Shown here: positions 11,195 to 62,262 of the stretch, piece after piece
Position numbering within the stretch: the first letter of the stretch is position 1
Layout: each line of letters starts with the position of its first letter
Virus record (IMG/VR): IMGVR_UViG_3300036760_000306
Span: 1 to 64,000 of that record
DNA from: a virus
Length of the DNA: 64,000 nucleotides
Strand: one strand, 5' to 3'
Translations under genes and position numbers: made by a program
Notes under the pieces: generated by a model
Database searches by the model: none
Seen by the model: the letters and a program-made list of their open reading frames with translations, nothing else
What the model was told of the DNA's origin: nothing

Positions 11195-11196
11195 CC

Positions 11197-15900: not shown

Positions 15901-16780
15901 GGTCAACAGCGCAAACTGCCCGCTCTGCAAAGGGGCCCAATGGTTGTACGAGACAAACGGCGAGGAAGTGATTCCAGTCCGTTGTCGGTGCCTGGAGCGA
16001 AAGCTTCTGCACGACTTCCTGGGCCCGGAAATCTACCGAGCCCCTTGGGTCCCGTCGTCCCTGTACAACATCACGACCAACGAAGCTGGCGAGGTCGAGG
16101 GGGACCGGACAGAGGAGAATCTGTTTCTCAAGGGTTCGTGGGCCGTGGTTTGCCAGCACCTGCACTGGGCGCTTTCGGCCAAGCGTCTCTACAGCCCCAG
16201 GTTCAACTTCAAGATCGTGGGCAACGACAAGCTCCTGACCGTGTGGTTGGGTCTTGAGTCCTATACCCAGCGGTCAACCGCAACTCGCAACGAGATCGAG
16301 ACCAACAACAGTTTGGACGATCTTATCGGTAACGCCCCTCTCGTAATCATCCGCCTTGATGGTCTTGAGCACCATAACAAAGCGGCGGCCAACGTCTTGA
16401 AAGAGGCGCTCAAGGTCCGAGAGTTTGGTTACAAGCCCACGTGGATTGCCGAGTGCGGCCGTCGTTTTGGACCAGGGCATCCGTCCTACAATGAAGCGGT
16501 AGGGGACTACATTGCAGAATGCTTTGACATCGTGAATCTCAGCGATGAGGACCCTCAGACCAAAGCGCAGCAAGCGGCCCTCGATGCAGCGGCCCAAGAC
16601 ATTATGGAGTCCGGGGAAGTCTCGATGGGGGCCGATGTGGAAACCCCGCGTATTGTGGTCCCAGCCTCCAAGGAGCGGTTCTTTGCAGATCCCGAACCAG
16701 AGTCAGATCCTGACACTAAGCGGTATGTACCAGGTGGTAGGGGTAAACGTAACAAGGGCAAAGGCCAAGCGGAGCTTTAA
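15890..16780 (+). CDS. Degenerate DnaC/IstB-like helicase loader with N-terminal Zn ribbon
   Basis: CPLC..CRC Zn motif, NLFLKGSW where a Walker A is expected, LVIIRLD; directly upstream of the helicase. Confidence 0.5.
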   Translation: MPPEVNSANCPLCKGAQWLYETNGEEVIPVRCRCLERKLLHDFLGPEIYRAPWVPSSLYNITTNEAGEVEGDRTEENLFLKGSWAVVCQHLHWALSAKRLYSPRFNFKIVGNDKLLTVWLGLESYTQRSTATRNEIETNNSLDDLIGNAPLVIIRLDGLEHHNKAAANVLKEALKVREFGYKPTWIAECGRRFGPGHPSYNEAVGDYIAECFDIVNLSDEDPQTKAQQAALDAAAQDIMESGEVSMGADVETPRIVVPASKERFFADPEPESDPDTKRYVPGGRGKRNKGKGQAEL

Positions 16781-33633: not shown

Positions 33634-34391
33634 AAGTGGCCGCCATTCAATTTTGCCCAACCTTCAAGGATGTCCCGAGCAATCTTCGACGTTTGGCTGC
33701 TTTAACTATGAAGGCGGCACAGGCTGGTGCGAAGCTTTGCGTGTTGCCAGAGCTTTGTACTACAGGGTATTCCATGATGGGTAAGGCTGAGGCGGAGCCT
33801 TTGGCAGAGGTTATTGGCGACTTCAAACCAGGGGGTAGCGGCACTTCTAGTATGGATGTGTTCCACGCTATAGCTAAAAAGTATAGCACTCATATTGTCT
33901 GGGGCCTGGTCGAAAAGAGTTGCGGATCTGGTAAGCTTCACAATTCTCAAGTTTTGATGTGTCCAGACGGTTCTTTTGAGACTACGGCCAAAGTAAATTT
34001 TTTTGGGAATGACTTCTTGTGGGCTACAGAAGGAAGGGCTAATCCTCCGATTCGTAAGATTGCAGTTGACGGGAAAGATTACAAAGTTGGACTTTTAATT
34101 TGCCGAGATGTGCGGGACAAAAAAGACGACAATTGGAAATCCTTCTACGAAAAGGGCGACGCCGATGTGGTCGCTCTCTCTTGTGCTTGGGGTAAGAGTT
34201 CTTTTCCTGCGACGGCGTGGATGGACTTTGCGGAAGAAAACAGCACTACGTTGATAGTGAGTAACCGCTATGGTGTAGAGGAGAATAACGACTTTGGTGC
34301 TGGCGGTATCGGTATCATCTCACCCGATGGTACCGTGCAATGTGAGGGCCTTGTGTGGGGTCAGGATTGCATCGTCTACGGGGAAGTCTAA
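33630..34391 (+). CDS. Carbon-nitrogen hydrolase (nitrilase superfamily)
   Basis: MKVAAIQ, VLPEL (Glu), AKVN (Lys), LICRD (Cys) catalytic triad. Confidence 0.9.
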   Translation: MKVAAIQFCPTFKDVPSNLRRLAALTMKAAQAGAKLCVLPELCTTGYSMMGKAEAEPLAEVIGDFKPGGSGTSSMDVFHAIAKKYSTHIVWGLVEKSCGSGKLHNSQVLMCPDGSFETTAKVNFFGNDFLWATEGRANPPIRKIAVDGKDYKVGLLICRDVRDKKDDNWKSFYEKGDADVVALSCAWGKSSFPATAWMDFAEENSTTLIVSNRYGVEENNDFGAGGIGIISPDGTVQCEGLVWGQDCIVYGEV

Positions 34392-34393
34392 AG

Positions 34394-34903
34394 ATGACGA
34401 CTCTGGCTCAACGTGTTGTTGATCGTTACTTGACGGCTAACGCCCCAGGAGAATACTACCCTAAGTATTGGATTGAGGATTTCGTGCATGAGAAGACTGT
34501 GCGTCGATTGACGTTACCCAACACAAATTGGGGCATCGCAATTGCACATAGCGAACGTTTGCAGGTTATCTGGGCGGACATCGTAGTTCGTTTCAAGCTC
34601 AAACAGAAGTTGACTCGGGAGCACCCGGACAACAAAGAAGATTGGAACGCCGCTGAGGGTGCCCTAGAGGCGTTCTTCAAAAGCGACACTGAAACTGCGG
34701 GTGTCATCTGCCAGGAGCTGTTCGACAAGGAACTACCCTATGCTCTTGGTGAGCGCATTGGCGCAATTATTCGTAGGGGACTCACGCGCAAAGAAGTCTC
34801 TACTCTAGCGAGCCTTCTCAGTGGATCTCGTACAAAGGATATCCTAGAGGGTATGGCTAAGTTATTACTAGGGGCTGCGGTATCACACTTATTTGGGCGC
34901 TGA
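34394..34903 (+). CDS. Hypothetical protein with N-terminal tag motif
   Basis: Begins MTTLAQRVVDRYLTA. Confidence 0.65.
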   Translation: MTTLAQRVVDRYLTANAPGEYYPKYWIEDFVHEKTVRRLTLPNTNWGIAIAHSERLQVIWADIVVRFKLKQKLTREHPDNKEDWNAAEGALEAFFKSDTETAGVICQELFDKELPYALGERIGAIIRRGLTRKEVSTLASLLSGSRTKDILEGMAKLLLGAAVSHLFGR

Positions 34904-35194: not shown

Positions 35195-37516
35195 ATGCCG
35201 AGAGAGCCCCAAATACCCCGTTGCAACTTCTGTGGTCGCCCTCGCAATGAGGTCAAGCACCTCATTGGAGCGCCGGACGGGGCGAACATTTGTAACGGCT
35301 GTATCACCGTTACCTCAGCAACTATCGCTGATGTCGAGCGCAAGGCCCCAGGGCCAGGGACCAAGGTCTCGGGACCGCTCAAGAAGCCCAGAGAAATCAC
35401 AGCATTCGTGGATGAGCATGTAATTGGCCAGGATGCGGCCAAGCGGGAAATTGCCATCGCGGTCTACGAGCACTACCGCCGTCGGGAAGTGGATAAGAGC
35501 AAGAACGGCGTGATCATGCTCGACGGGGAAGCGGTCGAGATCGAGAAGTCCAACATTCTGTTGCTTGGCCCGAGTGGGTGTCACAGGAAGGGCCAACTGA
35601 TCCTCATGTGGGACGGCACCCTACAAAAGGTGGAAAAAATCCGCAAAGGCGATCGTCTTATGGGGCCTGATAGCACCCCCAGGTTGGTCCAAGAGTTACA
35701 CAGCGGTGTTCAGAGTATGTTCCAAGTTACCCCTGTAAAAGGGGAGCCGTGGGTTGTCAATCAGGGGCACATTCTAACTTTGATCCGAACAAGTCGCAAG
35801 AGTCACGGCCAGTATCGGAAAGTCGCTGAGTTGGTGGACGTTTCGGTAGAAGACTGGTTGAGCTGGTCTAAAACGCAGAAGGCAGCCCACAAGTTGCTTC
35901 GAGTGGGTGTCACGTTTAGGGCCAACACCCAAGCACTGCCCTTAGAGCCCTACTTCTTGGGGGTGCTCCTTGGGGACGGTGCTATCACTAGCACTCCTAG
36001 AGTCACAACTGTAGACCCGGAGATTCTGGCTGAGTTGTTCCGTCAAGCAGAGCGGTACGGGTTGAAGGTAGTTCTGTGCAAGCAGAAAGCGAAGTGCCCT
36101 TCGTACAATATCTGTGGGACAAAGGGCGGTAAGCCCAAAGAAAACCCGATCACGGGTAAGCTACGGTCTTTGGGTTTGGCGGGGAAGTCCTGCGGGTTCA
36201 AATTCATACCTCAAATTTACCGGACTGCCTCTGAGGATGATCGCTTACAGCTCCTAGCTGGCCTCCTAGACACTGACGGTCATTTAGGCTGCAATGGCTT
36301 CGACTTCATCAGTAAAGCTAGGCTTCTTGCAGAAGGGGTGGCTTTCATCGCCAGAAGTTTAGGTTTAGCTGCCTATCTAAGGCTCTCTAAAAAGAGGTCA
36401 CAGCGAGGTACAGAAGGCACTTACTACCGTGTCTCTATCTCGGGGGACACTGATCGCATACCCACCCGTATCCCCCGTAAAGTAGCAACCCGTCGTAAGC
36501 AGACTAAGAGCGTGCTTCACACAGGCTTCACTGTAGCCGCTTTACCGCCTGAAAAATTCTACGGTTTTAGCGTTAACCGGGATCACCGTTACCTGCTTGG
36601 GGACTTTACCGTCACCCATAATTCAGGCAAGACGCACATTGCCCGAACGATTGCCCGGTTGCTGGACGTGCCGTTCTACGTCGGGGACGCCACGAAGCTC
36701 ACGAGTGCGGGCTACGTCGGGGAGGACGTGGAGTCGCTGCTTCAGGGGCTCCTGGCGGACGCTCAGAACGATATTGAGAAGGCACAGTGGGGCATCATCT
36801 TCCTGGACGAGTTTGACAAGCTCGCCCGCAAGGCTGGGTACGGTGCGTCTGGGATGCGGGACGTGACGGGGGAAGGGGTCCAGCAGGCGTTGCTCAAGCT
36901 CATCGAGGGTGGGCAGGTCGCGGTCCCCCGGGGCATGGGCTCCAGGGCGGTGTCTGGGATGACGCCCTCTGACGTGGTGGACACCCGGAACATCCTGTTC
37001 ATCTGTGCTGGGTCTTTTGCGGGTATCGAGCCCGTGATCGAACGCAGGCTCAACAAGTCCACGGGCCTTGGGTTTGGCAAAGAGCACCGGAAGCAGCACG
37101 CCAAGTCCGATCTGTACCGTGAGGTCCGGGTCGAGGACATTGAGGAATTCGGTCTGATTCCGGAGATCGTGGGCCGTCTGCCTGTGATCACCAGTACCCT
37201 GGAGTTGACCGAGGATGAGCTGATCCGCATCCTGACCGAGCCCAAGAATGCGATTTGCAAGCAGTTCCGGGCCCTGTTCTCGTTGGATGGGATCGACCTC
37301 CAGTTCGACCCCGAGGCATTGCGGGCGGTGGCTCAGAAGGCTCGGAAGCGGTCCACGGGTGCCCGAGCGTTGCGGGCTATCCTCAAGGAAGTGCTCAAGC
37401 CCTACTCGTACGAGGCCCCCGACAACCTGGACATTGCGGTTATCCGCATTACCCAGGAAGCTGTCGAGACTCCCGGGAAGGCTCTTGTGATGCGAAAAGG
37501 GGTTGGGACGGCTTAG
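35195..37516 (+). CDS. clpX: ClpX AAA+ unfoldase containing an intein
   Basis: CNFCG..ICNGC zinc domain, VIGQ, KSNILLLGPSG|SGKT, AGYVGEDVE, FLDEFDK, RDVTGEGVQQALLK, LGF loop, TGARALR; about 425 aa after splicing. Confidence 0.95.
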   Translation: MPREPQIPRCNFCGRPRNEVKHLIGAPDGANICNGCITVTSATIADVERKAPGPGTKVSGPLKKPREITAFVDEHVIGQDAAKREIAIAVYEHYRRREVDKSKNGVIMLDGEAVEIEKSNILLLGPSGCHRKGQLILMWDGTLQKVEKIRKGDRLMGPDSTPRLVQELHSGVQSMFQVTPVKGEPWVVNQGHILTLIRTSRKSHGQYRKVAELVDVSVEDWLSWSKTQKAAHKLLRVGVTFRANTQALPLEPYFLGVLLGDGAITSTPRVTTVDPEILAELFRQAERYGLKVVLCKQKAKCPSYNICGTKGGKPKENPITGKLRSLGLAGKSCGFKFIPQIYRTASEDDRLQLLAGLLDTDGHLGCNGFDFISKARLLAEGVAFIARSLGLAAYLRLSKKRSQRGTEGTYYRVSISGDTDRIPTRIPRKVATRRKQTKSVLHTGFTVAALPPEKFYGFSVNRDHRYLLGDFTVTHNSGKTHIARTIARLLDVPFYVGDATKLTSAGYVGEDVESLLQGLLADAQNDIEKAQWGIIFLDEFDKLARKAGYGASGMRDVTGEGVQQALLKLIEGGQVAVPRGMGSRAVSGMTPSDVVDTRNILFICAGSFAGIEPVIERRLNKSTGLGFGKEHRKQHAKSDLYREVRVEDIEEFGLIPEIVGRLPVITSTLELTEDELIRILTEPKNAICKQFRALFSLDGIDLQFDPEALRAVAQKARKRSTGARALRAILKEVLKPYSYEAPDNLDIAVIRITQEAVETPGKALVMRKGVGTA
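35579..36622 (+). mobile_element. Intein with LAGLIDADG domain in the ClpX Walker A
   Basis: CHRKGQ...TVTHN|S; PYFLGVLLGDG and LLAGLLDTDG; 348 aa. Confidence 0.92.
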
Positions 37517-37540: not shown

Positions 37541-38227
37541 ATGGATGCTATTTCGTTGATTGCGTTGCGTATCGCCGCTCGGTTCCAGAAGATTGCGTAC
37601 CAAGAAGGCAAGTTCTTGGGGCGGGATTGCCGCCTGACTTGGAGCAGGCACGGTTGGACCCTCGAAGAGCTGCCGATCAAGGGCAAGAAGAAGCTCAAGG
37701 TAGCGTCGTTGCAGAACCCCGTTACCATGGGTTGGGCTAACTTCGATGCCTACATTGACGCGAACATTCTGCAAGATGCCAGACTGAGTGCTTCGGATTC
37801 GTACGATAGCATCAAGCAGAAGATGCTTGATGCCTACGAGTTGGCGGCAGAGGTGTCCATCAACAAGATGACTCCCGATCAGGCCAAGAAGACGCTTTGG
37901 CTTCGTGAACTTAAGTGGTACGAGGATGAGGTTCACTACCTCAAGATCACCCCCGAGAACACGGAACCGTTCGAGGCCGAAGGTAAAGATTACACGATCA
38001 AGGTCACGTGGACCAAGTTTTCGACCTACTCCCCGGACTCTGACTTCCAGCAATCGGATCCGCACTACACGCAGTACGCAGAGTCCTCGGCCCAAGGGGC
38101 ACGTAGGCTGTACCAGATCTTGAAGGCTGACCCGAATGCTCTCAAGAGCGTCCCTTGGAAGAACCTGGGCGACTGGCTCACCAAGAACAAGGTCTCGTAC
38201 AAGATTCATTTCTCACAGTGGGGCTGA
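37541..38227 (+). CDS. Hypothetical protein with N-terminal tag motif
   Basis: Begins MDAISLIALRIAARFQKIA. Confidence 0.7.
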   Translation: MDAISLIALRIAARFQKIAYQEGKFLGRDCRLTWSRHGWTLEELPIKGKKKLKVASLQNPVTMGWANFDAYIDANILQDARLSASDSYDSIKQKMLDAYELAAEVSINKMTPDQAKKTLWLRELKWYEDEVHYLKITPENTEPFEAEGKDYTIKVTWTKFSTYSPDSDFQQSDPHYTQYAESSAQGARRLYQILKADPNALKSVPWKNLGDWLTKNKVSYKIHFSQWG

Positions 38228-46249: not shown

Positions 46250-46630
46250 ATGACCTTCCACATTCGACATAGCGATACCCGCTTTCATACGACTATGTGT
46301 GGGATCCCGTTGTCCTTTCGTGGCCCCATTCTTGGGCAGGATCCCAACTGTGTGTCTTGCGAACTTGCCGGGAAGGCTTGGGATCGGAAGATGGCTCAAG
46401 CGTACGTTGAGTATTGGCGGAAGTACCCAAGAACTAGAATTCACCGTTGGGCGGATCATTGGGCACACTTTGGGGACGGTGATTACGAGGTCTTAGACTG
46501 GTTCCCTATCGGGGTGGCTACGGCGGGTCTTGGCATTCCGGTGGTGATGGCTATGAAACGAGTGGCGCGTGTAGTGCTACGCTTTCAAAAACCCATTAAG
46601 CGCCCGCCTTTCATTCCGCCGGATGCGTAA
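46250..46630 (+). CDS. Hypothetical protein
   Basis: 126-aa ORF with H...CG...CxxC. Confidence 0.5.
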   Translation: MTFHIRHSDTRFHTTMCGIPLSFRGPILGQDPNCVSCELAGKAWDRKMAQAYVEYWRKYPRTRIHRWADHWAHFGDGDYEVLDWFPIGVATAGLGIPVVMAMKRVARVVLRFQKPIKRPPFIPPDA

Positions 46631-46649: not shown

Positions 46650-46945
46650 CTACGATCCGCTGACTCATCCGTTTCGAGATTCTGTTTCCGCCTGGACCTT
46701 TGAACAGAAGCCTTTGAGCCCTGGGGTTAGCTCGCCCCGATCGAGCATGTGATCGGTCTCAATGCGCTCCTCCGAAGTACGACCTTCGTCCCTGCAAGGG
46801 TAGCATCGCCCTGTGCCCAGATGGTGATCAAGGGTCGCATGCGTGCATAGGCAGGTTTGCTGAAGGGTTGCTACACCACTTAGGGCCGACGGTACGTGGG
46901 CGGGTTCTCTCGCATGAAGCGGTCTACGATCCGCTGACTCATCCG
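46650..46945 (-). repeat. 22-bp exact direct repeat (46650-46671 and 46924-46945) encoding RMSQRIV on the - strand
   Basis: CTACGATCCGCTGACTCATCCG present twice. Confidence 0.9.
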
Positions 46946-47190
46946 GTCCGCGATGGTAGTCTCGATGTGCCGCTCTCGGGCCTTCTCGCTCGTGAAGGCC
47001 AGGTGCCACAAGGGTTTGTCACCCTTCTTGGCGAACACGATGGCGTACGGTCGGCCCCCAGCCTCGTACTCCCACACCAGCAGGTCGGAGCCTGGGGGCG
47101 TATAGGGCTTCATGCCTCGGGTCTTGGGCGGCAGGTAACTCCGGTCGTAGCTGTGCCTTGTGCTCACGCTTTCACTGTTCACAAGGTTAG
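46880..47190 (-). CDS. Probably 5'-truncated hypothetical protein ending in a tag motif
   Basis: Open frame ...KPLWHLAFTSEKARERHI...RMSQRIVDRFMRE; the 5' end runs into an HNH remnant, so the start coordinate is approximate. Confidence 0.45.
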
Positions 47191-47219
47191 AACCGATACA
47201 CTTCGGAACTTCCTTTTCT

Positions 47220-47387
47220 GGCACACGCACTACTGCGTCTCTTGACCGTATTGACAACGACTTGGGGTACACACTAAACAACGTTCAATGGGTATCCAAA
47301 AGCATCAACCTTATGCGTCGGACCCTAACGATACCGGAGTTCAGGGTTTGGTGTAAGAAGGTGGCAGAATGGCAATCACGTATTTAA
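47220..47387 (+). pseudogene. HNH endonuclease C-terminal remnant
   Basis: ASLDRIDNDLGYTLNNVQWVSKSINLM with no N-terminal part. Confidence 0.7.
47350..47356 (+). promoter_or_regulatory. GGTGTAA element
   Basis: TAA at 47354, ATG at 47369 (15 nt). Confidence 0.45.
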
Positions 47388-48629: not shown

Positions 48630-49580
48630 ATGGCACTACCCCTCGAAAAACTCCAAGCGGTCCAGACCATCATCTCGCATGCCAACTGTGCTGACGGTAC
48701 GGCGGCGGCGATGTTCCTGCACGACGTTCTGCCCGCCGCTAAGGTCATCTTTTTGCAGTACGGGACCGAGGCGTACCGGAATCTCAAGGCTGAGCCCGGG
48801 ATGCTTTTCTGCGACTTCTCGCCCCACCCCGAAACGTACCAGCAGTTCATTGACGCGGGGGCCCTCATCCTTGACCACCACAAGACAGCACGAGGTGTGG
48901 TGGAGGCGTTCGGTGAGAACGGTGTGTTTGGGGATGAGGAAACTGAGCCAGGTGTAGCAGGAGCTACTCTCGCCTATCGTCACGTCTGGAGCCCACTACG
49001 TGGGCAGTGCACGCAAGCCTCGTTTGCAAACGACTTTGCCCGTTTGGCGGGCATTCGTGACACATGGCAGAATCAGAGCCCTGAATGGTTGGCGGCGTGC
49101 GCACAGGGGGAGCTGCTTCGTTTCATGGGCACAGAACGGCTTCTCAGCGTACCATTCATGAAGCTCTCTGAGTCTTGGGACCGTGACTTTAAATGGATCG
49201 GCGAAGTCCTGTTGGAACAGAACGTTCGGTCGGTGAGGGCAGTGATCAAGGGGGCTGTCCGATTCACCAGTGATAAAGGCACCCGAGTCGTGATGTTCGA
49301 TTCTACCAAACTCTCAAGTGACGCCGCAGAAGCGCTTGGAAGCGAAGCTGATCTCGTGATCGGCTTCGGGTACGTCCAGGATGACGTTACAACCCAGCCC
49401 AAGATGATCGTGTCTACACGCTCACACACGATCTTCGATTGTGCCGCGTTCGCCCTGCGGTTTGGCGGGGGCGGCCACACCAAAGCAGCGGGCTTTAGTG
49501 TGGCCATCTATCAGAGTTCCATGAACCCTTACGAGATCGTTCGAGGTCTGCTGGAAAGCTATGAACTAGGTGGTCTATGA
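48630..49580 (+). CDS. DHH/DHHA1 phosphoesterase (nanoRNase-like)
   Basis: SHANCADG, CDFS, LDHHKT, RDTW, GGGGH..AAGF. Confidence 0.88.
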   Translation: MALPLEKLQAVQTIISHANCADGTAAAMFLHDVLPAAKVIFLQYGTEAYRNLKAEPGMLFCDFSPHPETYQQFIDAGALILDHHKTARGVVEAFGENGVFGDEETEPGVAGATLAYRHVWSPLRGQCTQASFANDFARLAGIRDTWQNQSPEWLAACAQGELLRFMGTERLLSVPFMKLSESWDRDFKWIGEVLLEQNVRSVRAVIKGAVRFTSDKGTRVVMFDSTKLSSDAAEALGSEADLVIGFGYVQDDVTTQPKMIVSTRSHTIFDCAAFALRFGGGGHTKAAGFSVAIYQSSMNPYEIVRGLLESYELGGL

Positions 49581-49761
49581 ACCACCATATCGTGTAGTGT
49601 GTTTGGTGCTGAAAGAACTCAAAAACCGGATCGGTAGGTAGGGACTCAGGATCCCTACTTCGAGTTGCTGTTGGAGCAGTTTAAAGCGTCAGTTCAACCA
49701 GGTTGATAATCCATGTGTGCCGTGGGCTTAACGAAGCGCTCTGAGCGCCGTATGCCTAAAG

Positions 49762-50238
49762 ATGAAGCAGGATTCCCAGCCCGCTGATCCAGCAGCTTCA
49801 CCCCCTGTCGTGCCGTTCTTGCCGTTGTTTTCCTACGGTACGCTGCGCCACCCCGAGGTTCAACTGCACCTGTTCGGCCGGACTGTGAAGTCGGAAGATG
49901 CCGTACTTCACGGTTATCGGGTGGTTGCGGGACCCGATGGCTACTTCTTCATTGAACAGGACGAGACCACAGAGACTGCCGGAGAACTTCTGTTCTTGAC
50001 TCAGGAGCAGGTCTATCGCGCCGATCAATGGGAGGAAGTTCCTCTCTATGTGCGAAGCAGGGTCACGGTCCAGCTCAGCAACGGGGACTCCGTGAGCGCC
50101 TGGGCCTACTTTCGGCCAGAGATGACCGGTATGCTGCAACAGCGTGTGGCTCACCGCTTCCTGATCGCCTCGTTCAAGCCGGGCGACTACATCTTGTTCG
50201 GGAAATTCCGGAACAAGCGGGCTCGCGTGATCATATGA
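49762..50238 (+). CDS. Gamma-glutamylcyclotransferase-like (AIG2) protein with a C-terminal tag motif
   Basis: LFSYGTLR, ADQWE..Y.R, AWAY; followed by MLQQRVAHRFLIAS. Confidence 0.8.
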   Translation: MKQDSQPADPAASPPVVPFLPLFSYGTLRHPEVQLHLFGRTVKSEDAVLHGYRVVAGPDGYFFIEQDETTETAGELLFLTQEQVYRADQWEEVPLYVRSRVTVQLSNGDSVSAWAYFRPEMTGMLQQRVAHRFLIASFKPGDYILFGKFRNKRARVII

Positions 50239-52754
50239 CCCCCGAGGCCATTCTGGAGTCACAGCAGTTGGAAGCGGCGGAACGGGCTCTCGTTCAGAGG
50301 GTGGCCCAGCGCTACTTTGAAGGCTCTCGGACACTAGTGGGCGGTCGTCTAGCTCTTCCCATTAAAATGGCTAATGGTATCAATAACTGGGCCAAGGCAG
50401 TCTTTGGGGCCTGGGTTGTAGCGCACACTAAAAAAAGCCTTCTGACCGCTACAATGCCAAAAAGGCAAGCTGAACTTCAGAAGGTGCTCAACGCTGCCAA
50501 ACAAGATGCTAAAGGGCGGGCACCAGTCCCTCCCGATCAGGTGACCAAGACGTTTCGAGTGGCCCTCGATGATTTGCCGTCCGGGTATCCGGTAGACCGC
50601 ATGACGAAGATGCTGAGTGCGCTCCCAGTGACCCTGGACTTCACTGGGAAGCCCTACCCGCACGAGGGTGCTTACACGGCGGGTTACTTCGATGTTGAGT
50701 CTCGCGACCTTGTCTTACACCTTCATGGTACTCTGAACCCACCCTCTGATGTTACGGATTATCAATTCCGTCTAGGGGAGATGCAGACCGTTCTAGAGCA
50801 TGAACTACGGCATATGGTGCAAACCTTGCTTGGTGACGCCTTGGGGAAATCTATACTCAAGGATGACTGGGAAGTGGGCTCCCCTCACAGGTCGGACCCA
50901 GACCATGAGTTACTAAAGAAACACCCTGAGGATCAGTATTTCTTGGAGCCTTGGGAATTCCATACTTGGGTTGGACAGGCAAAAGATCTGTTTCTTAATC
51001 AAGTTAGCTTTCGTCCCGAGTACCTGAAAAAGCTCTATAGTGACGAGGAGGTGGTGCTGGAACCGACACGAAAAGAGTTCAATCTTTTCGTTGGTGATCC
51101 AAAGCCGACTCCAGCGGGAGTCCAGAATCAAGGGGTTTACACCTCTCCGTTTTTTGCGGCCTTGTGGCGGCACGATCGTAAACGTTGGCAAAGAGCGGTT
51201 GCCGAGTTATGGCAACAACTTTCATCGGAGCGGGCTCTCGTCCACAAGGTGGCTCAGCGCTACCTCGAAGCGACTGTCCCTCGGTACGTGTACCATTGGA
51301 CGAAAGCGAAGGCTCTACCCAGTATTTTAAGCAGGGGGCTTCTCCCCATGCCCTCCCCTGCCGCAGAAGGACGGGTTGTTTGGTTGTCAGCCAACCCTGA
51401 CAAATGGCGGGAGTTCGTGGAGAAGCAACACGAGGCACCTGGGAACGAAGCGGTACTACTACGCATCCCTGCAAGTGCAATTCCTGACTTGCAGGGATTG
51501 AAGCAGTCTCCGAACACCTTTGTCACAAACCGACGCATACCGCCAAGTGCTATTGAGGTCGTAACACCCAAGGAAGCGGCGACCGCAGCAAGGTTTAGGC
51601 GTCTGGCCCGTGAGGTACGGATCGTCATCGATCGTGATGCCACGCTTGTAGTCCGGGCCAAGCACCACGACACCTCGATAGTTGGAACCTTTGAATCAAC
51701 GGTCTCTCTGTACCGGATCTTTGACGGTGAAGAATTGGTGCGGTTGGCTCGATCAGGACGTTTCACCGGAGGCACCTACTCGGTTGGTTCAGAACGCGCC
51801 CACGGTGCTAGTTGGGGCGAGAACATCTCCGAGATAATCGGGTGGGGCAACCGTCAACGCGGTCACCGGCTTGGCGACGACTTGTTCTTGGCCAAGATCG
51901 ACGCTTCGGGCCGACGCTTTTACCACATGACCCCGGAGGTCGAGTTTCAACCTGAAGGTGAGTCCCTACAACCCGCCACCATGGATGTATCGAAGTGCAG
52001 CACCGGCCTTGGATGCAGTGTGGTCGATGTCCTGTTCAATGACGCGACGTTCTACCGCGTAGATCCGGGTGGGCAGATTGAACCGCTGTCCGATCAAGAA
52101 CTCCACAGCTACATGAAAGCACGGCCCCAGAAGGATGTGGATCTTCGAGCGGTCAGTCGCGTCATGCACTCCGGCACCATCTACGGGGTTGATGTTAATG
52201 TGGTGCTCGACCAAGAAGCACCCGATCACGAGCTACAGCCGCCATCCCCCTACTACCGCACTTGGTATGTAGAAGTGACGAGGGTGCCCGCCGAAGAGAC
52301 GGTGATCCTGAAGGGTGCCAAGACCCTAGAGCTTGCGGTCCATAAGGCTAAGAATCTCTTGAAGGGTACCACCGCTGATGATTGGCAGGGTGCTCGCCCT
52401 GTGTCCTTACTACCCAAGGCAGCCATGGATGTATGGCGCAAGCGTGAGCAGATCTGGCAGCAACGAGCCCGTTTGCAAAGAACGGCATCTGGGGGAGTAT
52501 CGACGGCAACCAACAGCTTCAATACTAAGCCAGGTAAACGGGTGACCCTGAGTGCCTATCACTCCCTCGCGGGTGACTTTGAAGGTGTAGCGGAATCCGC
52601 TGTGCCTTATGTGTACGCCCCCAAGAAGTTCAAAGAACTGGCTCCCACCATCTATGCAGCGGTGGCGAAATGGTTCAAGGGGGCACACGTCCGATATGCT
52701 GGGGATTCCTTTGCTAGCAATCCCATAGGGGAAGTCGAGGCGGCGCTGTGGTGA
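50235..52754 (+). CDS. Polyvalent protein: zincin peptidase, ART/Tpt1-like domain and further modules
   Basis: ATGA overlap start; LEHELRH + YFLEPWE; YHWT..SILSRGL.P..VWLS..VLLRI..RIPPSAI; modules separated by ERALVxxVAQRY. Confidence 0.75.
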   Translation: MTPEAILESQQLEAAERALVQRVAQRYFEGSRTLVGGRLALPIKMANGINNWAKAVFGAWVVAHTKKSLLTATMPKRQAELQKVLNAAKQDAKGRAPVPPDQVTKTFRVALDDLPSGYPVDRMTKMLSALPVTLDFTGKPYPHEGAYTAGYFDVESRDLVLHLHGTLNPPSDVTDYQFRLGEMQTVLEHELRHMVQTLLGDALGKSILKDDWEVGSPHRSDPDHELLKKHPEDQYFLEPWEFHTWVGQAKDLFLNQVSFRPEYLKKLYSDEEVVLEPTRKEFNLFVGDPKPTPAGVQNQGVYTSPFFAALWRHDRKRWQRAVAELWQQLSSERALVHKVAQRYLEATVPRYVYHWTKAKALPSILSRGLLPMPSPAAEGRVVWLSANPDKWREFVEKQHEAPGNEAVLLRIPASAIPDLQGLKQSPNTFVTNRRIPPSAIEVVTPKEAATAARFRRLAREVRIVIDRDATLVVRAKHHDTSIVGTFESTVSLYRIFDGEELVRLARSGRFTGGTYSVGSERAHGASWGENISEIIGWGNRQRGHRLGDDLFLAKIDASGRRFYHMTPEVEFQPEGESLQPATMDVSKCSTGLGCSVVDVLFNDATFYRVDPGGQIEPLSDQELHSYMKARPQKDVDLRAVSRVMHSGTIYGVDVNVVLDQEAPDHELQPPSPYYRTWYVEVTRVPAEETVILKGAKTLELAVHKAKNLLKGTTADDWQGARPVSLLPKAAMDVWRKREQIWQQRARLQRTASGGVSTATNSFNTKPGKRVTLSAYHSLAGDFEGVAESAVPYVYAPKKFKELAPTIYAAVAKWFKGAHVRYAGDSFASNPIGEVEAALW

Positions 52755-55700
52755 TCCAAGCACGAGTAGCAGAGCGCTTCGTTAGGGTGTCGGCGTACTC
52801 CGAAGACACCCTAGAGGTTGTTGCGGCCGGTCTTGCTCTACTGATCGCACAGAACTACATCGTCACCAATCCCTTCTTCGATGAGAAGGAGATCCGAACC
52901 TACCTGCTGTTGCGCAAGCAGTTCCACGGGGACTTCGTTCAAGCGTGCCTGGACCTGGCGAATGCCTTTGAAGAGGGCCAGTTCGGGCAGAGCGTGCAAC
53001 CGGCTGTCCCAGCTCTACGGGCTATTGGGCATCTTGGGGTCAAGCAGGATCAGCAAGCGATCCGACAACTCGCGAGAGCATTCCGAGGACTCAAGCACCT
53101 CAAGTACAAGGATGTCGAGAACCCGAAGCTCATGCGGCTCATCCTGATGGCCCGCAGACTTGATGTCACCGCCCCGATCGACGCATGGTCGTCCGGTGGC
53201 AGGGATATCAAGGATTTCCTGGAGAACCTGGTCAAGATCCCAGCAGTGCCCACGAGGCTCCGAACACTTCTTCGTAAAGTCATTAAGATGCCTGTGCCCG
53301 GCAGTACACTCACCGAGAACGCCAATCCGGGTGCTTGGTTTGAGATGCCTGCTGAGGAGAAGCAGAATCTTCGGGAGTTGACTGAGAAAGTTGAACAAGA
53401 GCAGCTTGACATCTGGGAGAAGCACAAAGACTCGGATGCCAATGAGCGCATGGCCGCTTACCAGAGTGCGGCTCGACGGCTCCAGAAGATTCAGAGCATC
53501 GCGGGTGTGAACGTTGGGATCATCAAACGCGAGGATAAGGTCCCGCTCGATGCCTTGCTGAAGAAAGAGTCGGGGCTCGAAACCGATGGGCCTACCGAGT
53601 ACACGCGACTCAAGCTTGAGGACTATATCAAGAAGATGGGTACCTACGGTGCCCAACGGAAAGAAGGCGACCCCCTTCCTCGTGAGATCAGCAAGCTGCT
53701 GACCAGCCTTCGTAAGGCTAAGACGTTCCCAACGATGCAGCGCGTGATCAAAGACGCGGTGGATCGTCAAGTGCTGGGCCGTGGGGCTGTCGAGGACGTG
53801 GACCAAATCCTCAAGCAGGCGAACAAGAACCGGGCGTTGAAAGAGGGCAAGCCCCTTACGCCACTTCAGTTCAGCCCACAAACATTGGAGCAGTTCAAGG
53901 CAGCGCACGACACGGGACCTGTGGAGTTCGACCCTGACTTCACGGAAGACGAGAAGCAGCAGTTGCTGGGCCGGGTTTCACGGGCCATCAGTGACTTGGA
54001 GGGTGTCTACGGGGAGGGCTTCTGCGGTAAGCATGCCAAGAAACTCGCGTTCCGTTTCAACAAAGGGTACAGCGGGATGGCATCCGCTCACTACTTCACG
54101 TGGGACGATCGCAAAACGTGGCAACCCAGGGTGACGTTCGGTCCGGAGTACGAAGGACTCTTGGCTCACGAGCTGTCGCACTACCTTGAGGACTTGCTGG
54201 CGTACCAGATCCAGAAGCAGACTGAACCTGAGCGTATCGAGGCCCTCAAGATCAAAGGGATCGAGGGCGGCCCGGGTGTTCTGTTTTCCAACACAGGCGT
54301 ACCCTTGAGTCGCTTCGCTGAGGCGGGTTCCCTGGCGAGCTATCGGGACCACCTGGGCAAGACGATCCCAGAGTTCGTTGATTTCATCGACGCTGTACTG
54401 GCCACACCGGACTACAAGCGCTGGGAGGACAAGCTTGGATCGGCTTACGACTCAGCGCTGCCCAAGGCGATCAAGGCGCTGACCGGCATGAACTATTACG
54501 ACCTGCCCAAAGATCACCCGTATTACAGTCTGATCGACAAAGCACGGTACCGCTCTGATCTACCGCCGGAAGTAAACGCCGAGGCACAGAAGCAGTACAA
54601 GGCTATGATGGGCGGCGACGATCGCAAGCTCAGTTACTACAACAGCTCCACCGAGGTTTGGGCCCGGATGTGCGAGCAGTACGTATACAACCGGCTTATC
54701 GACGCGGGGATCTCAAATCCGTGGCTCACTCAGATGAACTACGAGGATGATGTTTTCATGGACGAGAAGACCTTCGATACCAAGCTACGTCCTATCATGG
54801 ACAAGATCTTTGCCAAGCTGAAAGGCCGTAAGCTTATTGCAGGAGTTCCGATGAGCCCCCTACGTGAACGACTAGCGGACCGCTTCCTACTCGTGGCCCG
54901 AGTGGCGGCCCGCTACAAAGAGGCAAAGTACAAGAGCAAAAAAGTAGTGCCCAAAGCCAGCGGCAAAGGCACTACTGAGGTGTTGGTCTACTCGGATCGG
55001 CAGATAGCCCTACGTAAAAGCAAGAAAAGCAAGCGCCTTCAGAAGCTCAGTGGGCACATCGACAAGATGATGGCCAAGGTCAAGAAGGACTTGACCTCTA
55101 GTGATCAGAAGACTGCACGTGTTGCGCTCGCCATAATGTTGATTAATGAAACGTACGAGCGCGTTGGAAATGATACGAGTGCTGCGGGCGAGAACTCAGA
55201 CACGGATTCCACCCCGCACCTTGGGGTGACCGGGTGGTCAAAAAAGAACATCAAGTTCACGGGCGGTAAAGCCAAGATCTCCTACCGTGGCAAGAGTTCT
55301 GTAGACCATGTGAAAATCGTGGAAGACCCGGCGACGGTCAAGGCACTCAAAAAAGCCTATGACGAATGTGAAGGGGACAAGGACTGCATCTTCCACTGGG
55401 CAGATGGGAAAGTCACGGCCAAAGAAGTCAACGAGGAGTTACGATCCTTTGGGGATTTGACTGCCAAGGATTTGAGGGGGTGGCACGCCAACAGGCTCAT
55501 GAAAGAAGAGCTGGCTAAGGTACGAAAAGGCAAGCTACCCGAGGATAAGAAGGAGCGGGAGAAAAAGCTCAAGGATGAGTGGAAGAAAGCCTTGGAGGTC
55601 ACGGCGGAGGAAATCCAGCACGAACCTGGCACCCTTCAGGGACAATACCTGGTAGACTCAATGCGTGAACAATACCTGAAGGACGGTACCATAATCGAAC

Positions 55701-55933
55701 GTTTGGATAAGACCGCCATGCTTGACAACTGCGTAATTGACAGCCCCGCATCGGTCTTTGACCAAGTTGGGATCAAGCGGGGTGACCATTACACGATCAC
55801 CTGTGATGGTTGCGGAGCTGTGACTCGTTGTCGTTGTGATGGACCTAGAATTGAGGCTCACGTTCCTTCGTGTCCCGAGTGTGCCCCGAGTGCTCTTTCT
55901 GTCCGCTATCAAGTCTCAGAAGGTGCTGGGTAG
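52748..55933 (+). CDS. Polyvalent protein: zincin, LPD1-like domain, topoisomerase IB and Zn ribbon
   Basis: LAHELSH; YYNSSTEVWARMCEQY; Topo IB residues RVGN, YRGKS, KDLR, HEP, QY; terminal CDGC..CRC..CPEC. Confidence 0.8.
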   Translation: MVIQARVAERFVRVSAYSEDTLEVVAAGLALLIAQNYIVTNPFFDEKEIRTYLLLRKQFHGDFVQACLDLANAFEEGQFGQSVQPAVPALRAIGHLGVKQDQQAIRQLARAFRGLKHLKYKDVENPKLMRLILMARRLDVTAPIDAWSSGGRDIKDFLENLVKIPAVPTRLRTLLRKVIKMPVPGSTLTENANPGAWFEMPAEEKQNLRELTEKVEQEQLDIWEKHKDSDANERMAAYQSAARRLQKIQSIAGVNVGIIKREDKVPLDALLKKESGLETDGPTEYTRLKLEDYIKKMGTYGAQRKEGDPLPREISKLLTSLRKAKTFPTMQRVIKDAVDRQVLGRGAVEDVDQILKQANKNRALKEGKPLTPLQFSPQTLEQFKAAHDTGPVEFDPDFTEDEKQQLLGRVSRAISDLEGVYGEGFCGKHAKKLAFRFNKGYSGMASAHYFTWDDRKTWQPRVTFGPEYEGLLAHELSHYLEDLLAYQIQKQTEPERIEALKIKGIEGGPGVLFSNTGVPLSRFAEAGSLASYRDHLGKTIPEFVDFIDAVLATPDYKRWEDKLGSAYDSALPKAIKALTGMNYYDLPKDHPYYSLIDKARYRSDLPPEVNAEAQKQYKAMMGGDDRKLSYYNSSTEVWARMCEQYVYNRLIDAGISNPWLTQMNYEDDVFMDEKTFDTKLRPIMDKIFAKLKGRKLIAGVPMSPLRERLADRFLLVARVAARYKEAKYKSKKVVPKASGKGTTEVLVYSDRQIALRKSKKSKRLQKLSGHIDKMMAKVKKDLTSSDQKTARVALAIMLINETYERVGNDTSAAGENSDTDSTPHLGVTGWSKKNIKFTGGKAKISYRGKSSVDHVKIVEDPATVKALKKAYDECEGDKDCIFHWADGKVTAKEVNEELRSFGDLTAKDLRGWHANRLMKEELAKVRKGKLPEDKKEREKKLKDEWKKALEVTAEEIQHEPGTLQGQYLVDSMREQYLKDGTIIERLDKTAMLDNCVIDSPASVFDQVGIKRGDHYTITCDGCGAVTRCRCDGPRIEAHVPSCPECAPSALSVRYQVSEGAG

Positions 55934-55968
55934 GGAGGTTAAGGAGATGCTCCTTGGTGAACCGGGGA

Positions 55969-56136
55969 ATGGCGTCCAAAGTCCTGACTCGTTACCTCAC
56001 GGCCAGGGATGACCAAGGGGTGCATCGTTGGTCCGAAGAGGACCGGCGAAAAGCCAGTGAAGTTGAAAAAGAACTCAAACAGCTAAAGCAGACTATCGGT
56101 AAGCTTGCATCCGACCTTTTGCGGCTAGACCGCTAG
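55969..56136 (+). CDS. Small protein with N-terminal tag motif
   Basis: MASKVLTRYLTA followed by a short coiled coil. Confidence 0.6.
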   Translation: MASKVLTRYLTARDDQGVHRWSEEDRRKASEVEKELKQLKQTIGKLASDLLRLDR

Positions 56137-56169
56137 ACAGTCGTTTTCTAGTTATGCGCAACCTCAGGC

Positions 56170-56382
56170 ATGACCAACAAAAAGAAGATGCTCTTGGCCG
56201 GTGTGTTGCTCCTACTGGGTGGCGCTGCCGCAGCGTACAAGCCCGTGGCCTCTACCGCGAAGGCAAAGGAAGCCTGCAAAGATCTGCCGTCGTGTCAGGC
56301 AAGTTGTAGCAGCCCCTGTTTTTGCAACAGGTCCTGCTTCATCACTTGGTGCTGGGGGCCGTGGTACTGTCAGTGCGGCTGA
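56170..56382 (+). CDS. Small secreted Cys-rich peptide
   Basis: KKK plus hydrophobic signal/anchor; 9 Cys in the last ~36 aa, ending CQCG. Confidence 0.65.
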   Translation: MTNKKKMLLAGVLLLLGGAAAAYKPVASTAKAKEACKDLPSCQASCSSPCFCNRSCFITWCWGPWYCQCG

Positions 56383-56392
56383 TCAGTCGCAC

Positions 56393-56710
56393 CTAGAACT
56401 CATCGCATTTGATGGGGCAGCTCGGGCCGCGTGGGGAGGCCCCGCAGGTTGGGCACGGGCTCTGTGGCTTGACGTAATCAGGTACAGTGTGAACCGGGGC
56501 TGAGGCTTCGACCCACACGACCCTGGTCTTGTCGTCATGTCCGTGGATCGCCACCACGTCATCGATGGTGGCGTACATACCCATGGAGGATCGCTTGGCG
56601 AGCCAGTGGATCACGCATTCGCGATTCGTGAACTCAACACCTTCGGCAACAACACCTGTGCCGCTGACGCCTGAGGAATCTTCGTCACGATGAAGCTGAA
56701 AGAGCCGCAT
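56393..56710 (-). CDS. Conserved phage hypothetical protein
   Basis: MRLFQLHRDEDSSGVSGTGVVAEGVEF...IHGH, a pattern seen in small phage proteins. Confidence 0.7.
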   Translation of the reverse strand: MRLFQLHRDEDSSGVSGTGVVAEGVEFTNRECVIHWLAKRSSMGMYATIDDVVAIHGHDDKTRVVWVEASAPVHTVPDYVKPQSPCPTCGASPRGPSCPIKCDEF

Positions 56711-56715
56711 TTGGA

Positions 56716-57666
56716 TTACTCCTGGATACGAGTCGAACCGCACCCGCACACAACCTCAGCATAACTATAGAAGGCTCCGCAATCGGCGCATTCAAGAGGA
56801 AACGAGGCAGGCATATAGTTGCGGACCGGGACATCGATCTTCAGGTTCTTTGGCTGCCCAACTATAACTAGCTCGTTGACCTTCCCTCGCTTGTCTCCCT
56901 TCGAGTTGACGTTACGCTTAGCGCCCACGGTGTGCAAAGCAAAGCCTTCATACAATTCGTGCACAAGAGGAGCATCCGAGTTTGACTGCACGCACATGAC
57001 CCCGCGATCCACAAGCTTACGGAACAGCTCGGCAAGTTCCCGTTGTTCGTCAGGCCCAAACTGCCCTGCGTAGGCTGTGAAACTGGCGGTTTCCGAGACG
57101 GGTACGTAGGGCGGATCAAAGTACACGAGATCCCCAGCTTGGGCATCATGCACTGCCTCAGCGAATCCGCCGACCCGTAGGGTGGCAAAGCGTTGAAGGG
57201 TCTCTTGGCACGCCTCAATGTTGTGGCGGTCGTAGAGGCTGGGGTTGTCGTACTTACCGTAGGGGGCGTTGAACTTCCCCGAGCGGTTGACCCGGTAGAG
57301 GCCGTTGAAGCACGTCCGGTTCAGGTAGAGGGTGCGGGCCGCCTTCTCGACTGGATCCTCGTACTCCACCGCACGGATTCGCTTGAACTGCTGTTCCGTG
57401 TTCCAGTCCTGGTCTAGCTTGTATTGGTCAAGACGACGCAGTAGCTCTGGGAGTTGGTCGCGGACCACTTGATAGCAGTTGATCAGCTCGGGGTTGAAGT
57501 CGTTGAGTATGGCTTGGCGGAAACGCCGCCGGTCGGCGAAGTGGAAGAACACTGCTCCGCCACCTACGAAGGGCTCGTAAAAAGTCAGACTCTTGTGGGT
57601 AATGAGCTTGGAGAGCTTACCCAGTAACTGTGTCTTACCGCCAACATATTTAACGAATGGCTTCAA
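56716..57666 (-). CDS. dam: Dam-type (D12 class) N6-adenine DNA methyltransferase
   Basis: KYVGGK, EPFVGGGAV, LNRTCFNGLYRVN, YFDPPY; target sequence cannot be determined from the sequence alone. Confidence 0.92.
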   Translation of the reverse strand: MKPFVKYVGGKTQLLGKLSKLITHKSLTFYEPFVGGGAVFFHFADRRRFRQAILNDFNPELINCYQVVRDQLPELLRRLDQYKLDQDWNTEQQFKRIRAVEYEDPVEKAARTLYLNRTCFNGLYRVNRSGKFNAPYGKYDNPSLYDRHNIEACQETLQRFATLRVGGFAEAVHDAQAGDLVYFDPPYVPVSETASFTAYAGQFGPDEQRELAELFRKLVDRGVMCVQSNSDAPLVHELYEGFALHTVGAKRNVNSKGDKRGKVNELVIVGQPKNLKIDVPVRNYMPASFPLECADCGAFYSYAEVVCGCGSTRIQE

Positions 57667-61399: not shown

Positions 61400-61834
61400 A
61401 TGCTTGCCTATTGGTTGAATGCTCAAGAGTGCCTGGATCTCCCGCTTGCTGAACTGCGGCGGAACGGGATTGTGTACGAGTCGATTCCTGTTCAGGACCC
61501 TTGGCCACATTTGAATCGAATCAAAGCGGAGCATGGGTATGTGGCTGAAGACCTGGTGGACTTGAACGCGACTCGACCGGACTTCGAGAACCTAGGCCGA
61601 GCGTTCAAGCGTGAACACTCTCACGAAGAAGATGAGGTCCGCTTCATCGTCTCAGGGAATGGCACTTTCGACATCCGGTCAAACGACGACTGCTGGATGC
61701 GAGTTTGGGTTGAGCCTGGGGACCTGATCATCATCCCGGCTGGCCGTCACCACCTGTTTCATTTGACCAGCGAAGGCATCGAGGCCATCCGGCTGTTCAA
61801 GAACGAGGCGGGTTGGGTGCCTAGCTATCGTTAG
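61400..61834 (+). CDS. mtnD: Acireductone dioxygenase (ARD cupin)
   Basis: EHSHEEDEVRFIVSGNGTFD, GDLIIIPAGRHH.F, AIRLF....GWV. Confidence 0.9.
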   Translation: MLAYWLNAQECLDLPLAELRRNGIVYESIPVQDPWPHLNRIKAEHGYVAEDLVDLNATRPDFENLGRAFKREHSHEEDEVRFIVSGNGTFDIRSNDDCWMRVWVEPGDLIIIPAGRHHLFHLTSEGIEAIRLFKNEAGWVPSYR

Positions 61835-62235
61835 CGACCCCAGCTAAGCCTAGCTGAGTACGACATCGTTACCACTATGTCGTAAGCTTCCGATGGATCT
61901 TGAGTTGAACCCATGAAAGAAGCGGTAACGGTAACGTACCAACCGCCTTTTGAGAACGGAATTTCAAAGGTCCATTGTTTGCCGCTGGTCAGGCTGGGCG
62001 AATTTCTGTTGCTATAGTATTCTGCCCGGTAGTTCTGGATGGGGATCCCAGCAGCAGAGAGTCTGTCGAAGATCGCTGTAATCGGCTTCCAGTCGCTATC
62101 TCTGTGGACCCCGCTTGTCCCCGTCTGGGTAAGCTTCCTCAAGTAGGTTTCTGCCCGAGCCCTGGTCAAGCCTTCTAGGCCCTGATCTTGAGCTTGCAGG
62201 TAACGGAGGGCTACTTTTTGAGTGGTAGGGTCCAT
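61831..62235 (-). CDS. Hypothetical protein with N-terminal tag motif
   Basis: Begins MDPTTQKVALRYLQA. Confidence 0.65.
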   Translation of the reverse strand: MDPTTQKVALRYLQAQDQGLEGLTRARAETYLRKLTQTGTSGVHRDSDWKPITAIFDRLSAAGIPIQNYRAEYYSNRNSPSLTSGKQWTFEIPFSKGGWYVTVTASFMGSTQDPSEAYDIVVTMSYSARLSWGR

Positions 62236-62262
62236 GTACACCACTGTCGGGACAACAATGCC

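Follow-up and report, generated by a model that had tools for sequence, protein, structure and literature searches.

In phage T4, a capsid-targeting sequence is carried by the proteins IPI-III and Alt and is removed by the prohead protease gp21. Head morphogenesis proteins of the MuF/SPP1 gp7 type are fused to effectors and encoded right after the portal, and in vaccinia virus a topoisomerase IB (Topo IB) is packaged in the virions and helps early transcription. Polyvalent proteins of phages and conjugative elements were described by Iyer, Burroughs, Anand, de Souza and Aravind in 2017 (PMC5512222), where delivery together with the DNA and auto-processing by a metallopeptidase (MPTase) are proposed. 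The present analysis concerns a DNA stretch of 64,000 nt (the window), which covers positions 1-64,000 of the IMG/VR virus record IMGVR_UViG_3300036760_000306. The whole record is 116,457 bp long and has a CheckV completeness of 24%, so that it covers only part of a phage genome of several hundred kb. One of the genes in the window encodes a protein of 1061 amino acids (aa) made of an N-terminal peptide tag, a helical and zincin-like/LPD1 module, a doubled tag, a Topo IB and a Cys-rich tail, in this order (Table 1). The best-supported reading, with a probability of about one half, is that this gene encodes a phage polyvalent cargo protein of exchangeable, tag-flanked modules, which would be packaged in the head and delivered.

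The protein resembles the polyvalent proteins of PMC5512222 in uniting unrelated enzymatic domains in one large phage protein, in its LPD1 domain and putative zincin-like metallopeptidase, and in a mosaic, fast-changing architecture. It differs from them in that Topo IB is not among the domains of the main text of PMC5512222, where "topoisomerase" occurs in the reference list only. The passages of that text on "cleavage" and "autoproteolytic" contain no recurring inter-module tag, and "linker" has 0 occurrences. A phage-specific topoisomerase I has been reported in phiRSL1, Lu11, PaBG, Motura and NCTB (Iyer et al. 2021, PMC7824862); the passage on this jumbo-phage enzyme mentions neither a fusion nor a tag, and the relevant passages of the PaBG paper are silent on its topoisomerase in virions. 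These phages were not retrieved when the window protein was compared by tblastn with 50,697 phage records. In the literature, no published description was found of Topo IB in polyvalent proteins or of the tag.

A reading of this DNA made from its letters alone (the sequence-only reading) had proposed a compact Topo IB with all five catalytic-type residues, and all motifs that it listed were found in their places in the open reading frame (ORF). Pfam assigns aa 757-962 to Topoisom_I (PF01028) with an E-value of 2.6e-21 and 76.5 bits (cut-off 23.7), which is the sole Pfam assignment of this domain. The phmmer search of the PDB retrieved an archaeal Topo IB (6z01, 6e-7) and that of D. radiodurans (2f4q, 1e-4). 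Residues R805, K849, R910, H958 and Y967 align with residues 137, 174, 239, 280 and 289 of the D. radiodurans TopIB chain, which we take to be the catalytic Arg, Lys, Arg, Asn and Tyr of that enzyme. In an alignment of 45 sequences, the R, K, R and Y of this pentad are invariant, and the H is at least 90% conserved. The AlphaFold2 (AF2) model of aa 700-1061 has a mean predicted local distance difference test score (pLDDT) of 82.3 and a predicted template modelling score (pTM) of 0.72, with a core above 90 and the last ~70 residues below 60. Using this model, Foldseek retrieved the Topo IB of variola virus (2h7g, 1.1e-11) and D. radiodurans (3m4a, 3.1e-11) and human Topo I (~1e-10), within a range of 1e-11 to 1e-8 for matches of this kind. 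The per-segment structure prediction that the sequence-only reading suggested as a check is therefore in its favor for this segment. The module runs from the tag to ...IERL, and its N-terminal domain is shrunk to a beta-hairpin in the model. The model gives sound support to a complete, very compact Topo IB, which is apparently catalytically complete and should be able to relax duplex DNA by nicking and resealing it, with no need for ATP.

Topo IB and the tyrosine recombinases share a fold, and the module might instead be a site-specific tyrosine recombinase, a telomere resolvase or an RNA-acting enzyme. The best tyrosine recombinase found by Foldseek, XerH, has an E-value of 6e-4, and in many giant relatives the module stands beside domains of the RNA-repair type (RNA ligase, PolyA_pol, HAD_SAK_1, 2H). 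This explanation is very improbable, as Topo IB structures match at least seven orders of magnitude better than recombinases, Topoisom_I stands alone in Pfam, and the Topo IB-specific Lys (K849) is conserved along with the whole pentad. Since polyvalent proteins mix unrelated activities, the company of other domains says little.

The closest structures are the Topo IB of variola (2h7g/3igc) and vaccinia virus (1a41), which are small and have the same R-K-R-H-Y pentad. Unlike these, the phage module is embedded in a much longer protein, has the reduced N-terminal domain described above and shares 17-19% identity with them; packaging in the virion would be a further likeness. Its ~270 aa are fewer than the 314 residues of the variola chain, which is of enzymological interest. 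The bacterial and archaeal Topo IB (D. radiodurans 2f4q/3m4a; 6z01) are relatives in sequence, with aligned catalytic residues, but they are free-standing cellular enzymes, unlike the phage module.

The N-terminal module was modelled over aa 1-725 with a pLDDT of 88.2 and a pTM of 0.77. Foldseek found nothing in the PDB at E ≤ 1e-3, zincins being common among the weak matches, and the profile of the module gave only marginal helical matches among PDB sequences (formin, E = 0.011). When the model was compared with 48,161 representative chains by VIA-align, zincins came top for aa ~290-700: the catalytic domain of anthrax lethal factor (Z 9.2; 179 residues aligned, root-mean-square deviation 4.0), PPEP-2 (Z 8.1), a putative metal hydrolase (Z 7.6), PPEP-3 (Z 7.2) and thermolysin (Z 6.8), all within a range that the tool itself rates middling. 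In 37 sequences, H474, E475 and H478 of the HELSH motif are invariant, as are E636 and E643 in the LPD1 stretch, which are candidate third zinc ligands. LPD1 itself is matched by all 37 members of the module family. Among predicted viral structures (BFVD), three matches were obtained at E ≤ 1e-3. The best (5.1e-5) is an unnamed entry; it is followed by a protein annotated with a "phage head morphogenesis domain" (1.5e-4) and by one with a "large polyvalent protein-associated domain" (7.4e-4). The models thus give moderate support to a zincin-like peptidase domain at aa ~370-700, with LPD1 as its C-terminal helical part. The LPD1 match above cut-off, the invariant HExxH and the zincins at the top of VIA-align agree with a polyvalent-type protein carrying a zincin-like/LPD1 module, as the sequence-only reading had it.

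The same reading had placed a Cys-rich zinc ribbon at the C-terminus. The stretch of six Cys is present, and all six are also found in the relative P0007, but its assignment as a ribbon is weak, with low AF2 confidence (blocks 30-37, pLDDT 33-60). It is probably a small zinc ribbon. The DKTA motif that precedes it is not conserved among fused relatives.

The possibility that the fusion is an artefact of assembly or of a frameshift had been raised with the sequence-only reading and is negligible. The same order of N-terminal module and Topo IB occurs in eight other database proteins on other contigs (given as P0003-P0009, P0013 and P0016), one of them from a complete 398-kb genome. Contigs from other sediment sequencing runs were used to check the junction, and those of two runs, X2 (54500-55320) and X6 (54839-55268), span it without indels.

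The two modules were compared separately among the nine fused proteins. P0003 is 99.6% identical to the window protein in the N-terminal module and 54.1% in the Topo module, while the values for P0005 are 68.0% and 92.3%; the identity switches between the modules at the doubled junction tag. The same point is marked by two contigs of run X3. The first follows the window up to 54922 and continues with other sequence, and the second matches from 54923 onwards with a different upstream part, so that the breakpoint lies two codons past RVAARY. Modules are therefore swapped exactly at the tag. Fused proteins also differ in junction length and in the number of tags. All this would fit tags that are chiefly recombination joints or flexible linkers, with no role in addressing or cleavage.

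The distribution of the tag speaks against such a limited role. Its consensus is [RK]-[VI]-A-x-R-[YFW]. In the 71 ORFs of the window, the loose pattern was seen 14 times (2.0 ± 1.4 in shuffles), and in the 170 ORFs of the record 17 times (3.8 ± 1.9); 12 of these 17 were accepted as tags. The strict core, R[VI][AV]xR[FYW], was counted in all fetched loci together with this record (1673 distinct ORF products, 494,396 residues) and was seen 128 times, against 3.2 ± 2.1 after shuffling and 5 for the reversed motif. Sixty of these 128 tags are located in the first 30 residues, where 10% are expected, 12 in the last 30, and 56 are internal. Their bearers form 21 single-linkage clusters. One contains 69 polyvalent proteins, and the other 20 consist mostly of small proteins with the tag at residues 4-31. 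Only 21 of the 128 immediately precede a Topo IB. Within 40 residues upstream of the domain in 139 Topo IB proteins, a full tag was found in 81, a half tag in 27 and a variant (e.g., K-T-A-x-A-K-Y-K) in 31, and in giant proteins the tags are located between domains. The proposal that tag motifs delimit the modules is thus borne out, the tags being non-random and sitting at module borders. The 12 tags of this genome differ in their codons at synonymous sites, which indicates conservation of the peptide and not of the DNA. This, together with the many tags near the start of proteins that are mostly small and unrelated and have no junction there, makes the reading of tags as joints or linkers improbable. 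Two other readings of the tag were set aside, as a peptide like a ClpX adaptor, with an intein-bearing ClpX encoded by this phage, and as a motif for clamp binding.

In function, the tag would be most like the T4 capsid-targeting sequence, a short N-terminal peptide shared by unrelated proteins, some of them encoded remotely; here, too, the same short peptide stands on unrelated proteins with a bias to the termini. It is unlike the T4 sequence in its letters and in occurring also at C-termini and between modules, and both targeting and cleavage would be putative functions here. In the fused proteins, the N-terminal tag is kept in six of the eight others (alignment A4), and P0008, P0009 and P0016 begin without it.

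Further tagged genes were noted in this genome. Small proteins with a tag near the N- or C-terminus are encoded at 34355-34903, 37541-38227, 46250-46630, 46880-47281 (minus strand), 61831-62244 (minus strand) and G000 96481-97011 (minus strand), and the tag of the one at 37541-38227 is conserved in homologues from relatives. A 373-aa protein (11191-12312), tagged near its N-terminus with RVAERW (aa 10), contains a HEFGH motif of its own and may be a second tagged zincin. Five of the 17 loose matches, EFGHRF, EFLGRW, KLAFRF, ELGTRF and QVLYRW, were dropped as non-tags; KLAFRF lies inside the zincin-like domain, where it is conserved.

The relatives of the protein are numerous. A word-indexed search gave 62 related proteins. 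Many of them contain the ~700-aa N-terminal module on its own, and others join it to Topo IB, before or after it, or to different domains. Pfam analysis of 12 such proteins revealed the orders GNAT-Topo-module, NUDIX-Topo-...-module and module-2H, with weak matches to DRAT and ART-PolyVal. An exhaustive search of 50%-identity representatives with the whole query returned 1146 proteins at E ≤ 1e-3, of which 431 reached E ≤ 1e-30. In most, the match is confined to query residues ~716-990 and may stand anywhere in the protein, the lengths ranging from 297 to 3381 aa. Twenty of the largest Topo IB proteins carry PolyA_pol, RNA ligase, HAD_SAK_1, 2H, GNAT, ChaC, DUF5661 or ART-PolyVal domains alongside. 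In 185,579 prokaryote species (one genome each, in a pattern-limited scan), the Topo module was found only in three contigs of metagenome-assembled genomes. The window protein itself combines unrelated domains (zincin-like/LPD1, Topo IB, Cys ribbon) in one polypeptide of a virus record and has the signature LPD/MPTase domains, and among its relatives partners and order vary; this mosaic architecture is the pattern that defines polyvalent proteins. It is a member of a very large and apparently unpublished family, in which enzyme cassettes of huge phages are delimited by tags. The variant in the window is notable for the fusion of zincin/LPD1 with Topo IB and for a gene that lies outside the head cluster.

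In many other members of the family, the genes are located near those of the head. In LR745208 (485 kb), the portal gene (phrog_16240, 1.2e-33) is followed by a 134-aa ORF, a 508-aa HAD-like-tag-Topo IB protein, two small genes, a GIY-YIG homing endonuclease, another small gene and the head maturation protease (phrog_18299, 1.9e-10). The portal and protease of this phage were used as tblastn queries (E ≤ 1e-5) within 10 kb of Topo IB in the best 80 of 186 IMG/VR Topo IB loci, 72 of which have distinct centres. The portal was found at 45 of the 80 loci, the protease at 51, either at 55 and both at 41. The usual map comprises the portal, a giant Topo IB protein (1200-1800 aa), p211, p193, the protease and an acidic scaffold-like protein. 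This proximity to head genes in 55 of 80 loci fits a head-packaged protein, as far as the relatives are concerned. As in the MuF/gp7 systems, the Topo IB protein of relatives is directly downstream of the portal, and the N-terminal module resembles a head morphogenesis domain protein in the BFVD search. Unlike in those systems, the gene in the window does not adjoin the portal, and no MuF Pfam domain was detected in the 1061-aa protein.

Two observations concern the head genes of relatives. A conserved segment with the consensus ...GAR.VTA.LDRIA.LFQ..H..LG.P.K.A.DFAYRCDLLSD.IEK.AG... makes up small proteins next to the head protease and is found fused to the C-terminus of Topo IB giants as well (L015 7031-7666 and 9125-9790; C-terminus of P0116; G002 311503-314202, minus strand), and may be the part docking to the scaffold. 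In L056 (14791-18852) and L075 (15101-19216), the head maturation protease is encoded by an ORF of ~1350 aa that shows the protease homology in three pieces, which suggests large insertions, possibly inteins.

Several observations weigh against packaging in the head. Replication and nucleotide genes are present in the record, and no structural gene was recognised in the 64-kb window or in the remaining 52 kb. The order DHH phosphoesterase, fused gene, Dam (opposite strand) and RNase HII is shared by the window, L005/L017, L006/L022, L021, L023 and L062, and these neighbours are DNA-metabolism genes. In the complete relative G002 (398,071 bp, with terminal repeats, 100% complete), the fused gene (~143-145 kb) and the portal gene (314,227-316,032) are ~170 kb apart. 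Neither portal nor protease was found within 10 kb at 25 of the 80 Topo loci, including L016, L017 and L021-L023, and these take in the nearest relatives of this phage; for the N-terminal module, one or the other was nearby at three of ten loci. The census is built on the proteins of a single phage. The tblastn search of the phage records gave one good match, in an uncultured 485-kb phage (40.9% identity), and five weak ones, in Xanthomonas/Erwinia jumbo phages (E ~1e-5, half of the domain), so that no virion proteome is tied to the family. Finally, no peptidase family of Pfam matches the N-terminal module, and the zincin call is built on middling Z-scores and one motif.

The conserved neighbourhood, the distance from the portal and the gene content of the record would suit a cytoplasmic topoisomerase of replication or repair, never packaged and working with the neighbouring DNA-metabolism genes, for example in relaxing supercoils of replication and transcription or in processing ribonucleotides beside RNase HII. 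The tags would then be a localisation signal, a partner-binding helix or a linker. We consider this rather unlikely. The same two modules, with their tags, are encoded between the portal and the head protease in other phages, and the mosaic architecture with effector-type partners (GNAT, NUDIX, ART-like) is unlike that of a housekeeping enzyme. The neighbour upstream, a 908-aa protein whose gene appears coupled to the Topo IB gene, contains between its own tags (aa 104-404) a module that is also encoded in that head interval, between the portal and the Topo IB protein of L075/L077/L079. In T4, packaged proteins are also encoded far from the head genes, and the distance between gene and portal is therefore weak evidence. 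In the head region of G002, small proteins are tagged at their N-terminus.

For the polyvalent cargo protein, packaging, cleavage, delivery and DNA as the target of Topo IB are what we infer. The tags would direct the protein to the head under assembly, or show where the modules are cut apart, or both; the cutter would be either the head-maturation protease or the protein's own zincin. Topo IB would accompany the DNA and relieve the huge genome of torsional stress, at genome entry, during early transcription or in packaging. The early-transcription role, drawn from the poxvirus analogy, is speculation. Cleavage at the tags is less certain than packaging and forms the weakest link. The herpesvirus assemblin has an Ala/Ser-type cleavage site. 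The consensus of 16 scaffold-like proteins ends with ...PRKASTGVK.LG.VTKTAS..., residues 1-4 of the tag are R-V-A-(A 55%, S 11%), and a variant K-T-A-x precedes many Topo modules; these would fit an Ala/Ser-type site, which is a short motif. When the head protease of G002 (aa 1-300) was paired with the junction of that genome's fused protein, complex prediction gave a score of 0.00, which speaks neither for nor against.

If the cargo reading is true, huge phages bring their own ATP-independent topoisomerase into the cell, in parallel to the poxviruses, and a simple peptide code decides which enzymes enter the capsid. Three questions would then be open to direct tests: the response of very long genomes to torsional stress while they are packaged, ejected and first transcribed; the evolution of cargo repertoires through the exchange of cassettes; and the use of the tag for loading phage heads with proteins of choice. 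A more specific combination of these ideas is unlikely as a whole. According to it, R-V-A-x-R-Y is a portable address, probably also a cut site, which loads any flanked enzyme cassette into the capsids of a large clade of huge phages; the commonest cargo would be a minimal, cofactor-free Topo IB acting on the phage's own 0.4-0.6-Mb genome inside or leaving the capsid, easing the twist of packaging and ejection where ATP-dependent enzymes cannot act. If so, it would be the first capsid-borne topoisomerase of a bacterial virus.

Table 1. Features of the Topo IB fusion gene and its upstream neighbour (positions in the window).
Feature	Position	Strand	Basis or remark
Whole gene, polyvalent-type protein, 1061 aa	52748..55933	+	single open frame, GTG start
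N-terminal tag RVAERF, aa 6-11	52763..52780	+	pattern scan
All-helical N-terminal region, aa 1-369	52748..53854	+	AF2; no known fold found
Predicted zincin-like metallopeptidase domain, aa ~370-700	53855..54847	+	HELSH, VIA-align, LPD1
HELSH	54167-54181	+	motif located
Pfam LPD1 match, aa 627-692	54626-54823	+	27.6 bits, cut-off 27
YYNSSTEVWARMCEQY	54635-54682	+	motif located
Doubled junction tag	54863..54916	+	RERLADRF aa 706-713 (54863-54886), RVAARY aa 718-723 (54899-54916)
Compact Topo IB module, aa 718-990, ~270 aa	54899..55717	+	Pfam, phmmer, AF2, Foldseek
RVGN	55160-55171	+	motif located
Putative catalytic R805	55160-55162	+	alignment
GKS	55289-55297	+	motif located
Putative catalytic K849	55292-55294	+	alignment
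KDLR	55466-55477	+	motif located
Putative catalytic R910	55475-55477	+	alignment
HEP	55619-55627	+	motif located
Putative catalytic H958	55619-55621	+	alignment
(G)QY	55640-55648	+	motif located
Putative catalytic Y967	55646-55648	+	alignment
DKTA, between Topo module and Cys ribbon	55706-55717	+	motif located
Cys-rich tail CxxC-x5-CxC-x11-CxxC, aa 1019-1045	55802..55882	+	six Cys
Upstream 908-aa gene, two internal tags	50028..52754	+	tags aa 91 = 50298-50315, aa 407 = 51246-51263

The Topo IB gene has a GAGG sequence 7 nt 5' of its GTG start, and the GTGA in which a second GTG (52751) and the upstream gene's TGA overlap makes the two genes look translationally coupled. A scan of 49400-56800 for sigma-70 promoters and terminators gave results at or below chance. 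No PHROGs family was found for the 1061-aa protein, and neither a Pfam nor a PHROG match for the 908-aa protein. The RNA run X24 covers a small share of the stretch with differing upstream sequence and gives no evidence of transcription.

By Pfam, the window contains homologues of SNF2, DnaB and ClpX that bear inteins, a family A DNA polymerase, ThyX, Dam methylase and RNase HII. The genes of the SNF2-type helicase (12709-15900), the DnaB-type helicase (16780-21072) and ClpX (35195-37516) match intein and LAGLIDADG/Hint domains, with two stretches of intein and LAGLIDADG matches in the DnaB gene. An S-adenosylmethionine decarboxylase-like gene and a gene of the ARD (acireductone dioxygenase) family, at 9553-9996 and 61400-61834, are metabolic genes unusual in a phage. 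Beyond the window, a 2H phosphoesterase with a match to Acb1 (anti-CBASS) is encoded at G000 72291-72887, and a NUDIX/NrtR-like gene is located beside a NAMPT-type phosphoribosyltransferase at G000 82067-84501; these are candidate counter-defence and NAD-salvage genes.

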